DNA from: Escherichia phage vB_EcoM_11B_SA_NWU
Sequence record: OR062527
Direction: 5' to 3' (one strand)
Length of the DNA: 64,000 nucleotides
The stretch's first letter is position 1, and each line of letters opens with the position of its first letter. Shown here piece by piece: positions 2,093 through 62,382 of the stretch. The notes below the pieces were generated by a model. It was not told the DNA's origin and did not search any database. It was given only the letters and a program-made list of their open reading frames with translations. Both the position numbers and the translations under genes were made by a program.

Positions 2093-3744
<1,652 letters not shown>

Positions 3745-32086: not shown

Positions 32087-32106
32087 CAACTTTGTGCAAT
32101 CTTTGG

Positions 32107-32136
32107 AAAATAAAAAAGGACTCCCGAAGGAGTCCT
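32107..32136 (-). terminator. Rho-independent terminator (aggactcc-CGAA-ggagtcct plus U-run on minus strand)
   Basis: 8-bp GC stem directly after ORF stop at 32141; minus strand continues ttttttatttt. Confidence 0.65.
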
Positions 32137-32140
32137 CAAC

Positions 32141-32317
32141 TTATGCTTTCTGCTTACCAAAACGAGAAGCATCATCTCGAAGAACCGCACGTGCTCGGCG
32201 CATGATCTTCTCAACAGTTTGATTGATACGAGAGTTCGACCCACGCTTGTAGCCAGCGCGTTTAGAATCACCAACTTTCTTTTCAACTGCTTTCTTTGCT
32301 TTAACTTGTTTTGCCAT
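32141..32317 (-). CDS. Small highly basic hypothetical protein (58 aa)
   Basis: MAKQVKAKKAVEKK... from ATG 32317; terminator immediately after stop; other-frame ORF 32032..32286 judged spurious. Confidence 0.45.
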   Translation of the reverse strand: MAKQVKAKKAVEKKVGDSKRAGYKRGSNSRINQTVEKIMRRARAVLRDDASRFGKQKA

Positions 32318-32562
32318 TATAAATTCTCTTTTAAATGAAAATGCAGGACTTATTGGCATTGCCTGCGCAAGCCCTCAAGGGGAACATAGGTTTTTGGGTA
32401 TTTAACGACCAGGATAACCATAAACCCGTCATCATTCACATTCAAGAGGTACACCATAAAACTGCCGGGGTCTTAAAACTATAATGATTCGCAAATCATT
32501 AATCAGACAGTTCGATGGCTCCTCGATTTTAGCTCACACTAAGGCAGTGAATCTCCAATAAA

Positions 32563-32811
32563 TTACTTCAATGTTACCACAAAGTGACGAACTGCTTTTC
32601 GCGCAGCAGAAGCCAGAGGCTTAGCATACTTAAGTTCATCTTTTTCCTGAAGCTCAGCAGCTAATGCAGTTTGAGCAGGATTCAAATGTTTGAAATAACG
32701 CAGGATTTCAAGAGCTTCGGCTTCAACATCAATAGATGCGCCATAGTTTTCGTGACCATTATTCCATGCGTTTCGTTGCAGTTCAAGAGCGTGTTGTAAT
32801 TGTTTAATCAT
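32563..32811 (-). CDS. rIII: RIII lysis-inhibition accessory protein
   Basis: 82 aa (T4 RIII length), located just before gene 31 in map order. Confidence 0.65.
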   Translation of the reverse strand: MIKQLQHALELQRNAWNNGHENYGASIDVEAEALEILRYFKHLNPAQTALAAELQEKDELKYAKPLASAARKAVRHFVVTLK

Positions 32812-32950
32812 TTAAAAATTCTCGTTAGAGATTAAAACTCGGTAGTCACGTTCTTCTGAATTTCATCTTCTTTCGACAGATCTCTCAGTTGTAGACTACC
32901 ACGTAGAATTGTTCGGTTAACTTATTATTCCGACACCCAATTCATATTAT

Positions 32951-62229: not shown

Positions 62230-62382
62230 TCAATTAGTTGACTTTGTTATAATATCATCAGACGCTTGATTTGTAAACTGGTCTGTGTTATTTTCTTCAA
62301 AAATTTTTTCTACGAATTCCTTGAACGACTTACGTTCCTGAGCTACATTATGCTCGATTACTTTTTCAAGATTATGACTCAT
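62230..62382 (-). CDS. Small hypothetical ORF (50 aa) missing from ORF track, coupled to arn
   Basis: ATG overlaps arn stop (ATGA); translated by hand as MSHNLEKVIEHNVAQERKSFKEF...; overlaps predicted asiA promoter. Confidence 0.35.
   Translation of the reverse strand: MSHNLEKVIEHNVAQERKSFKEFVEKIFEENNTDQFTNQASDDIITKSTN
62249..62277 (-). promoter_or_regulatory. Putative early promoter for asiA: -35 TTTACA, 17-nt spacer, -10 TATTAT
   Basis: Minus strand GTTTACAaatcaagcgtctgatgaTATTAT ~30 nt upstream of asiA ATG. Confidence 0.45.

Follow-up and report, generated by a model that had tools for sequence, protein, structure and literature searches.

A putative RNA decoy cassette between genes rIII and 30.9 of T4-type phages

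Downstream of rIII, T4-type phages carry a spacer in an otherwise gene-dense block. We analyzed this locus in a window of 64,000 nucleotides, the whole stretch of DNA considered here, from Escherichia phage vB_EcoM_11B_SA_NWU (sequence record OR062527), a Tequatrovirus with 100% identity to AugustSocin and FL08 over positions 32100-32850. The minus strand carries all genes in this block, in the order gp31, rIII, the 245-bp stretch, 30.9 and then a terminator. A preliminary description of the window had reported a gap of about 245 bp beside rIII; the gap is real, spans 32318-32562 and recurs in the T4 RefSeq genome at 130541-130784. The elements that frame it are as follows.

32563..32811, minus strand: rIII, 82 aa, the upstream gene, whose stop codon abuts module A1 (from the ORF list and the annotations of identical phages and T4)
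32318-32562, minus strand transcribed: rIII-30.9 gap, 245 bp
32141..32317, minus strand: gene 30.9, 58 aa (MAKQVKAKK...), very basic, phrog_1427
32116..32137, minus strand: intrinsic terminator 3' of 30.9, the first terminator downstream of the cassette (from a terminator scan)

The earlier statement that no reading frame of 60 aa or more occupies the gap is borne out, the longest plus-strand frame having 49 aa and the two longest minus-strand frames 35 and 34 aa. We rejected both minus-strand frames as coding: the 35-aa frame has no ATG in T4, and indels break the 34-aa frame in HMD-9. An upstream in-frame ATG at 32359 would yield a 72-aa form of 30.9 in the window, and AR1 is among the records annotated in this way. 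A 1-nt deletion in other T-even phages (TTTAAAGAG vs TTTAAAAGAG) places the corresponding ATG out of frame, and T4 RefSeq uses the 58-aa form. We also rejected an identification of 30.9 with TifA, since tifA is gene 61.4.

Taken as a single sequence, the gap was confirmed but explained nothing, because neither a tRNA, an Rfam family, a promoter nor a terminator could be assigned to it and its fold is unexceptional. ARAGORN predicts no tRNA genes in the whole window and an Rfam tRNA match is also absent, in agreement with the failure of the preliminary description to draw a cloverleaf. The covariance-model scan that it had proposed as a check returned no Rfam family within the gap, even at E<=10, and permissive thresholds applied to the window, the phage loci and the bacterial loci returned nothing relevant; a sub-threshold Atu_C8 match and a Phe_leader match were set aside as the 30.9 terminator. 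Scanning for sigma-70 promoters and terminators gave none in 32318-32562, and by eye none of the T4 promoter classes, early, middle (MotA box) or late (TATAAATA), could be recognized convincingly in the gap. A search of the literature on transcript mapping of this T4 region gave nothing usable. The region folds no more stably than shuffled sequence (z = -0.6), so that the impression of structure gained from one sequence found no support there and the evidence for structure is comparative, not thermodynamic.

Comparison is informative at this locus. The gap is matched by 767 phage records, many of them partially, which contradicts a reading of the region as unconserved filler. Aligned on the transcribed strand, eight phages divide it into a variable module A (32562->32436) and a nearly invariant module B (32435->32318). 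UGKSEcP2 has no module A, so that its module B directly follows the rIII stop, and A1 and A2, the two parts of module A, are also missing at two further loci (L169 and L173); in HMD-9 module A is partly deleted and A2 is shortened. Some phages carry an extra insert of 153 or 43 nt between A and B, some further loci have rIII followed by the 43-nt module and B without any A, and in Klebsiella T4-like phages the modules stand in another order.

The part of module A adjoining rIII is the following.

32526..32562, minus strand: module A1, one diverged ToxI-like repeat (pseudo-ToxI), UUUAUUGGAGAUUCACUGCCUUAGUGUGAGCUAAAAU, with a core hairpin CAC-U-GC/GU-GUG at 32549->32535

Module A1 was recognized by way of a short-form pattern scan of viral contigs, which led to a 341-kb jumbo-phage contig in which an 830-nt ORF-free region repeats the hairpin that follows the rIII stop in the window. 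Many phages have a hairpin of this type, 88-100% identical and frequently placed between tRNA genes; they include Acinetobacter, Vibrio, Shewanella, Serratia and Klebsiella T5-like phages and Kuravirus. Their consensus is the 36-nt ToxI repeat, which in ToxI(Pa) reads AGGTGATTTGCTACCTTTAAGTGCAGCTAGAAATTC (PMC8610362). A blastn search with ToxI matches about 80 phage records, among them phiTE, in which the element is annotated as pseudo-ToxI, and Klebsiella T4-like phages, in which the match falls in the rIII-30.9 gap.

We aligned 13 sequences, comprising ToxI(Pa), the phiTE pseudo-ToxI, the window and 10 other phage copies. Fourteen columns are invariant in 13/13 sequences, the window being the most diverged of them, and the core duplex (9-25, 10-24 and 11-23, with 13-22 and 14-21) is paired in 65/65 cells over all 13 sequences, against 1-59% when the partners are slid. 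Pairs 9/25 (C-G, U-A, G-C) and 10/24 (G-C, A-U) covary. In Mosigvirus and some other T-even phages the A1 position is taken by AGGTGATTCGCTACCTTAAGTGCGGCTAGAAAATCG, a sequence near-identical to ToxI that departs from it by U9C/A25G, a 2-U loop and one extra A, and that keeps C27/U28. The former changes were harmless in the experiments of Blower 2012 (PMC3475682), and C27/U28 are essential for ToxI antitoxicity (Blower et al. 2012, PMC3475682). The allele shared by the window and T4, UGGAGAUUCACUGCCUUAGUGUGAGCUAAAAU, is more diverged than the Mosigvirus-type allele: in the window GGAG replaces GGUG, the loop is shorter, GCU is preceded by an extra A, and AAAAU is found. At the C27/U28 contacts the window reads GUGUG-A-GCUAAAAU against GUGCA-GCUAGAAAU of ToxI, GCU being retained and shifted by the one inserted A. 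The 3' end, UAAAAU, contains the AA/AU of ToxN(Pa), not the GAAAU preferred by ToxN(Ec).

[quoted passage not shown] It differs in that the window has no toxN gene, no tandem array and no terminator, A1 lying inside a phage mRNA. No ToxN cleavage motif was found 5' of the A1 unit, and the repeat is present as a single copy, without tandem repetition, in the window and in all T-even loci read; tandem ToxI-like copies occur in a Klebsiella T5-like phage, in Pectobacterium phages and in a jumbo-phage contig. Judged by these sequence comparisons, A1 is a diverged single repeat of ToxI, and the homology is well supported.

Following A1 on the transcribed strand, module A2 contains the feature that the preliminary description had highlighted, a perfect palindrome (taatgatt-cgca-aatcatta). 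The palindrome lies exactly at 32482-32501 but forms only the tip of a larger element, its apical hairpin. It is the ToxI-like repeat beside rIII and the basal stem flanking the palindrome that are informative, and neither had been recognized earlier. Module A2 is made up as follows.

32433..32528, minus strand: module A2, long-form homolog of a small RNA found beside PD-T4-5/AbiF-family Abi genes
32510..32524, minus strand: A2 basal stem, 5' strand, GAGG-A-GCCAU-C-GAAC, pairing with 32446-32461
32462..32509, minus strand: A2 apical insertion, 48 nt, with upper P1 (UGUC/GGCA), a conserved CUGAUUA, the P2 hairpin and a conserved UUAUAGUUUUA
32482-32501, minus strand: A2 P2 hairpin, the palindrome of the preliminary description, UAAUGAUU-UGCG-AAUCAUUA
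32446..32461, minus strand: A2 basal stem, 3' strand, UUUU-AUGGU-GUA-CCUC
32438-32445, minus strand: A2 conserved tail, UUGAAUGU, after the 3' strand of the basal stem

Twelve distinct phage copies of A2 form an irregular stem of GAGG/CCUC, GCCAU/AUGGU and GAACUGUC/GGCAGUUU, with the palindrome hairpin on top. RNAalifold recovers 25 pairs from these copies, 10 of them with compensatory change, and counting pairs for our own A2 structure on phage copies gives 98% of cells paired, against 23-63% for slid partners. A compensatory change is found even within Tequatrovirus, where GCCAU/AUGGU of the window stands against GCCGU/ACGGU of T4. The comparative alignment that had been suggested as a check thus did reveal covarying pairs, and it assigns the structure to the transcribed minus strand, since its invariant G.U pairs would turn into C.A if the opposite strand were read. 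Both P2 and upper P1 covary in W70 and Kuravirus, indicating that the apical insertion is under selection. Most phage copies carry this insertion of 48 nt; an insertion (44-48 nt) is absent from the bacterial copies described below, whose type is defined by a short apical loop (4-14 nt), and from short-form phages, which include a T-even phage (HMD-9), a member of the Gordonclarkvirinae (KBNP1711) and the jumbo-phage contig L142. A hammerhead-like reading of CUGAUUA was rejected, the core G being missing and GAAA absent.

The bacterial relatives of A2 came from a pattern scan of 185,579 bacterial genomes for its basal stem. The scan returned a single match, in an Arsukibacterium genome. There, a 264-aa gene lies divergent from two A2-like repeats in tandem, which end in a rho-independent terminator, and the neighbors of the gene (E1-like and JAB genes and a resolvase) mark a defence island. 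For the 264-aa protein the best PADLOC match is PD-T4-5 (E 3e-30); PADLOC AbiD and Pfam Abi_2 match it less strongly. We then compared the contexts of six homologs. Those in Aeromonas, a Pasteurella-like contig and Lonepinella carry the RNA with a terminator; at locus L157 the A2-like RNA is present and the context ends at the contig end; and two distant homologs have a different or partly similar RNA. Around 68 Escherichia plasmid records also encode a homolog, the closest (47.7% identity) being located on plasmids of about 3.1 kb. One such record of the pMB9292_4 type (L162), taken in full, has TTCGAGGAGCAGGCGAACTACCGTTTTTCTGTGTACCTCTAGAGCGTAA and a terminator in the same position, the RNA lying at 650-727 of L162, and in that one record no annotated feature covers the A2-like RNA. 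In Aeromonas, the Pasteurella-like contig, Lonepinella and this 3.1-kb E. coli plasmid the RNA and its terminator lie 60-90 nt divergently upstream of the Abi homolog. PADLOC, applied to five of the six Abi proteins (L157 was left out), gives PD-T4-5 as best match in 5/5 (L155, L156, L158, L159 and L162), with E from 1e-25 to 1e-30, and the E. coli plasmid protein belongs to the PD-T4-5 family at about 100 bits, a membership that does not imply the same allele.

The bacterial RNAs have a promoter-like -10 element of their own and a clear terminator, both predicted. Six bacterial and three short-form phage copies together support 13 pairs with 100% of cells paired, five of which covary, and bacteria and phages have in common the stems GAGG/CCUC, GCNNN/NNNGU and GAAC/GUUU with an A bulge, together with CGAAC, UUUU and GUGUACC. 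We built a covariance model (R1) from the six bacterial copies only. This model matches every phage lineage examined: the window at 32433-32528 on the minus strand over the full model length (51.5 bits, E 1.2e-11), T4 (51.8 bits), HMD-9 (54.5 bits), the jumbo-phage contig L142 (56.1 bits), W70 (34.5 bits), KBNP1711 (32.8 bits), Kuravirus (25-27 bits) and a site beside tRNA-Cys in phiTE (32.8 bits). About 33 unrelated viral loci yielded one marginal match only (L144, 15.4 bits, E 0.42); the A2-pattern match there is probably due to chance, as its stems do not pair. A search of plasmids and E. coli genomes with the gap by blastn gave no match, because the A2 core is short and is split by the insertion.

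On this evidence from sequence and covariation, the homology of A2 with the small RNA beside PD-T4-5/AbiF-family genes is well supported. By analogy with AbiF-RCd22, the bacterial A2-like RNA is probably an antitoxin. AbiF toxins are neutralized by an adjacent hairpin ncRNA through direct binding, as in type III systems, and the solved AbiF-ncRNA complex ties AbiF to the ancestor of Cas13 (PMC12373285). The bacterial A2 loci share with AbiF-RCd22/RF03085 and the PbAbiF-ncRNA (Saunier et al. 2025, PMC12373285) an Abi_2 toxin gene beside which a hairpin RNA, single or duplicated, ends in a terminator, and differ from them in that the A2-like RNA is divergent from the gene rather than an upstream leader. 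They also differ in that the Rfam abiF family (RF03085) matches neither the window region (E<=10) nor the bacterial A2-like loci. PD-T4-5 itself (Vassallo et al. 2022, PMC9519451) is the connection through the five proteins by A2-like RNA for which its family is the best PADLOC match; in the accessible part of that report it is described as a plasmid-borne gene only, a distant AbiF/D relative with an abortive, toxin-antitoxin-like defence against T4, and an RNA partner is unmentioned there. In the window, A2 has rIII and 30.9 as neighbors and no adjacent Abi gene, an arrangement that fits a decoy and not a resident antitoxin.

The remainder of the spacer is module B, which continues into 30.9.

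32385..32435, minus strand: module B1, conserved hairpin AUGAUGACGGG[UUUAUGGUUAU]CCUGGUCGUUAAAUACC..., nearly invariant in 8 phages
32318..32384, minus strand: module B2, remaining portion of the 30.9 leader; two hairpins, CCCC-UUGA-GGG and GCAGG[CAAUGCCAAUAAGU]CCUGC; ribosome-binding region AAGAGAAUUUAUA upstream of the ATG

The B1 hairpin is predicted and shows almost no covariation, and the columns of B2 are invariant in the eight-phage alignment. In STML-198 the second B2 hairpin reads ACUGG[...]CCAGU, a compensatory change by eye that the alignment fold did not recover. B1 also follows A2 in the rV5-like phages A5-4 and LTH01, and takes another place in the order of Klebsiella T4-like phages; the AAGAGAATTTA block of B2 is common to rV5-like phages, where it stands just before a tRNA-like gene. 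Neither blastn against plasmids and E. coli genomes nor a metagenome scan revealed a bacterial counterpart of module B, the scan for B1 returning T4-like phage contigs only. Module B may simply be the leader of 30.9, or it could take part in the same function that we propose below for module A.

The modules are not confined to T-even phages. They have spread to rV5-like, Kuravirus, jumbo and T5-like phages, often within tRNA clusters, and every module A copy is co-oriented with the neighboring genes. Phages phi92 and arall (Justusliebigvirus) carry the T4-type cassette at 98-99% identity inside a tRNA gene cluster; the phi92-like copy is circularly permuted, includes the last 98 bp of rIII and has a 7-bp microhomology junction. 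The presence of the cassette in phi92-like phages is a recent transfer. In the rV5-like phages W70, A73, A5-4 and LTH01 an 80%-identical core occupies the leader of a tRNA operon, downstream of a TTGACA-N17-TAAGAT promoter, and Kuravirus has a version of module A between a 157-aa gene and the large terminase gene. In phiTE, pseudo-ToxI and an A2-like element lie together in one tRNA region. Among the different phage families we found no common protein neighbors of A2.

Of the four options offered in the preliminary description (a structured leader, a small RNA, a protein-binding site or an origin-like element), a structured RNA is upheld by the compensatory changes in its helices, an origin found no support, and an RNA that binds protein is the likely function, given that two modules are homologous to RNAs that bind and neutralize toxins. 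The account we favor, and judge somewhat better than even on the sequence comparisons above, is that the rIII-30.9 spacer is an RNA decoy cassette directed against RNA-antitoxin Abi systems. The RNA modules of the spacer would form a cassette that shares a transcript with the genes on either side, and two or more of the modules would mimic bacterial RNA antitoxins: A1 would copy ToxI, the RNA that keeps the ToxN endoribonuclease inactive, and A2 would copy the hairpin RNA divergent from PD-T4-5/AbiF-family (Abi_2, HEPN-type) toxin genes. Host transcription shutoff depletes antitoxin RNA; on shutoff by the phage the unstable antitoxin would decay and free the toxin, whereupon the phage look-alike, released from the mRNA, would refill the pool and bind the toxin, and the cell would survive long enough for phage growth. 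For both A1 and A2 we observe homology, selection on structure in phages, presence or absence between relatives and spread across families. The decoy account is drawn from their behavior as dispensable cargo, their spread among unrelated virulent enterobacterial phages, their placement in tRNA clusters, which would supply expression and processing, and the unpaired nucleotides that they share with bacterial RNAs.

Experimental precedent exists in phiTE, which overcomes ToxIN by expressing an expanded pseudo-ToxI, its 1.5 repeats being inactive until expanded (PMC3475682). The toxIN(Ec) and PD-T4-5 alleles tested still stop wild-type T4, and T4 escapes toxIN through amplification of the protein gene tifA, not through expansion of A1. 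It follows that the single diverged A1 may be ineffective, allele-specific or a seed for expansion. We count against the decoy account the single diverged A1 repeat, the lack of a terminator after A2 in phages, the apical insertion, the unmatched RF03085 and the absence of a bacterial B.

Other explanations must account for the same observations. The modules could act in cis, as an intercistronic signal for processing or stability of the transcript that spans rIII and 30.9 (for example a site of RNase III or RNase E type, or a hairpin shielding the 3' end of the rIII mRNA) combined with a translational operator of 30.9, their likeness to antitoxins reflecting ancestry or chance capture. We regard this as unlikely, even if several features are in its favor: the copies are co-oriented with flanking genes and lie between genes or ahead of tRNAs, the long form of A2 is an irregular rod of 17-19 bp, a shape known from processing sites, the invariant module B runs into the 30.9 ribosome-binding site, and GGAG motifs (RegB-type sites) are present in A1 and A2. 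The GGAG of A2, however, lies within a helix and covaries with its partner strand (AAGG/CCUU), a point against a RegB site that depends on sequence. Moreover, UGKSEcP2, L169 and L173 dispense with A1 and A2 and have rIII, module B and 30.9 intact, the same elements recur in contexts as unrelated as a terminase operon, tRNA leaders and a jumbo-phage array, and in bacteria the A2 core is a free-standing RNA, with its predicted promoter-like -10 and terminator, beside a toxin gene.

The mobility of the modules allows the more improbable reading that they are inert recombination scars or selfish mobile spacers, similar to PeSL cassettes and of no benefit to the phage. Their presence, absence and order differ between close relatives, module A stands between the two copies of an imperfect direct repeat (the rIII end GGTAACAYTGAAGTAA vs GGTGTACCTCTTGAATGT), and the permuted phi92 copy with its 7-bp microhomology is as expected from a mini-circle or duplication intermediate. 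Scars would not explain why compensatory substitutions preserve every helix within and between phage lineages, nor why the unpaired CGAAC, UUUU and GUGUACC vary neither in bacteria nor in phages, a sign that the RNA is under purifying selection; the sigma-70 promoter or terminator of the PeSL type is also missing from the gap. The PeSL promoter-terminator cassettes of T4-type phages (PMC4122927) do offer a likeness, being small mobile intergenic modules that shuffle and possibly form mini-circles, as would fit the permuted phi92 copy, and differ from the gap in their strong sigma-70 promoter and terminator stem-loop, the conserved features of the gap being covarying helices. The relationship could finally be reversed, with the phage RNA as the trigger that Abi senses: by displacing the resident RNA it would activate the toxin, and the bacterial RNA would resemble it for that reason. 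PD-T4-5 was selected for defence against T4, a carrier of A2. Some defence systems do sense structured phage RNA, as with cabRNA and CBASS. A trigger should nevertheless be lost quickly, and A2 is kept in hundreds of T-even genomes and was acquired independently by several phage families; in the related ToxIN and AbiF systems, besides, the resident RNA inhibits the toxin and extra copies suppress it. We consider this reversal very improbable.

If the modules are decoys, phiTE already provides an example of such a mechanism; the novelty lies in finding it in T4, in a second class of target and in the organization as a cassette. Mimicry of antitoxin RNA has one worked example, the phiTE pseudo-ToxI, which the literature found treats as a special case. 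Like A1, that element (PMC3475682) is ToxI-like and lies in non-coding DNA of a virulent myovirus; in phiTE it is transcribed while infection proceeds, and the U9C/A25G pair and 2-U loop are common to it and the T-even alleles. It differs in having 1.5 repeats in a tRNA-like scaffold that need expansion, whereas the window has a single repeat, with GGAG and a shorter loop, fused to the rIII stop and A2. In the literature found, whose coverage is incomplete, we saw no ToxI-like sequence in T4-type phages at the rIII-30.9 locus, and, as far as the accessible portions of the sources go, no RNA partner for PD-T4-5 and no phage mimic of an AbiF-type RNA. Conceptually related are RNA anti-CRISPRs, which are phage mimics of CRISPR repeats, and defence-imitating RNAs of this sort are often located in tRNA clusters. 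Likewise, the T5 tRNA that neutralizes PARIS (PMC11464382) is non-coding phage RNA resembling, or standing in for, an RNA that a defence system contains or targets; both cases concern other defence systems and other RNAs.

Should the decoy account be correct, T4, the most thoroughly studied of phages, would long have carried such mimics in a well-known, unannotated gap, and T-even, rV5-like, Kuravirus, T5-like and jumbo phages would commonly use this strategy. A second Abi class, AbiF/PD-T4-5, relatives of the Cas13 ancestor, would be targeted likewise, and PD-T4-5-family genes would gain a predicted RNA partner. Varying phage sensitivity to ToxIN- and AbiF-type defences would become directly testable in these terms, which is relevant to choosing or engineering therapeutic phages.

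A broader version of the decoy account, which we advance tentatively and place a little below an even chance, is that the spacer is a collecting site for antitoxin-RNA mimics, a multivalent anti-Abi array, with PD-T4-5-family systems being toxin/RNA-antitoxin pairs and the other modules decoys for systems yet to be described. Were this so, intergenic RNA of phages could guide the discovery of RNA-controlled defence systems. The other modules in question are B1, B2, the 153-nt and 43-nt inserts and a second repeat family of the jumbo phage.

ToxI-like repeats, of the kind that occupies 32526-32562 of the window (A1), were found between or next to tRNA genes in two other phages, and this placement suggests that the repeats are released by tRNA processing. 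The sites in these phages and in phage phiTE are as follows:

Klebsiella T5-like phage (L150), 1028-1078: two ToxI-like repeats in tandem, between two tRNA-Ile genes
Acinetobacter phage PhT2 (L151), 1212-1227: single ToxI-like repeat, 12 nt upstream of tRNA-Ser
phiTE (L153), 1480-1600: annotated pseudo-ToxI
phiTE (L153), 125-206: site matching the model of A2, the hairpin RNA adjoining A1

The phiTE pseudo-ToxI looks to be enclosed by a split tRNA gene, with a D-arm (TATAGCTCAGC) ahead of it and a T-arm (GGTTCGAACCC...CCA) behind. About 1.3 kb away, the second phiTE site adjoins tRNA-Cys and scores 32.8 bits with the covariance model built from bacterial A2 copies only. The same model gave a further, weak match in the window itself (62327-62359, minus strand; 17.9 bits, E 0.07), which is probably noise.

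Two further phage loci were noted:

W70 (L007), about 2604-2690, minus strand: tRNA-like gene, GCGCGGG...GAAGGTTCGAGTCCTTCC..CCCGCGC
phi92 (L005), 2901-3248: T4-type piece, also present in arall (L006) and SD2 (L015)

The tRNA-like gene of the rV5-like phage W70 lies directly 3′ of modules A2 and B1 (the latter at 32385-32435 of the window), and is preceded by a block, AAGAGAATTTA, that likewise precedes the ATG of gene 30.9 in T4. ARAGORN made no call for this gene, and the stretch homologous to it is labeled 'tRNA-OTHER' in two other phage records; the observation also covers loci L139 and L140. In phi92-like phages, the T4-type piece sits within the tRNA cluster at 98-99% identity, with tRNA-Gly on one side and tRNA-Gln on the other. 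The piece is a circular permutation, in which window positions 32565 to 32309 are fused to 32647 to 32550 through a 7 bp microhomology, and it carries a 16-bp terminal repeat. The phi92 gp113 product, annotated as 'putative rIII', is the captured tail of rIII.

The rIII-30.9 gap itself contains additional modules in other phages, none of which matched Rfam:

TB004 (L008), about 820-975, and Klebsiella T4-like phage (L154), 1035-1170: 153-nt module, GGCAAGTGCATGCTACCCCGAGG...CAACAGATAAGAGC

This module lies between A2 and B, the 30.9-proximal conserved part, in many T-even phages, and Klebsiella phages have it too; a module of 43 nt (CATGCGTCAGAAAAGTGTTATCTGTGTAAG) occurs in other members of the T-even group.

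GenBank records label 30.9 homologs '1,4-alpha-glucan (glycogen) branching enzyme, GH-13-type' or 'putative 11.1 kDa protein', and some extend the ORF to 72 or 128 aa. These labels look spurious, because 30.9 (32141-32317; phrog_1427) has no Pfam domain. Sub-threshold Rfam matches to Atu_C8 (31.4 bits) and Phe_leader at 32102-32185 (minus strand) are accounted for by GAGGACUCCUUCGGGAGUCCUUUUUU, the strong hairpin of the terminator that follows 30.9.

A larger collection of these elements occurs on a 341-kb IMG/VR jumbo-phage contig:

L142, 1431-2258: ORF-free region of 830 nt

It contains four to five ToxI-like repeats, one A2 of the short form (lacking the apical insertion) and a second repeat family with the pattern UUGGCUUAUU..GAUACUUCUAC...AAAGAUACUUUCCAG, and may be a larger array of decoys mimicking the antitoxin RNAs of abortive-infection toxins.

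On the bacterial side, the RNA partner seems to have co-diversified with the PD-T4-5-family protein. Upstream of 1501 in Vibrio cincinnatiensis (L160), a more distant family gene is accompanied by a different, divergently oriented RNA and terminator (GAGUUCUUUGGAUACGUCCAAGAG...); at another such gene (L161), the tail GUACCCCUUGAAUGU is the only part in common.
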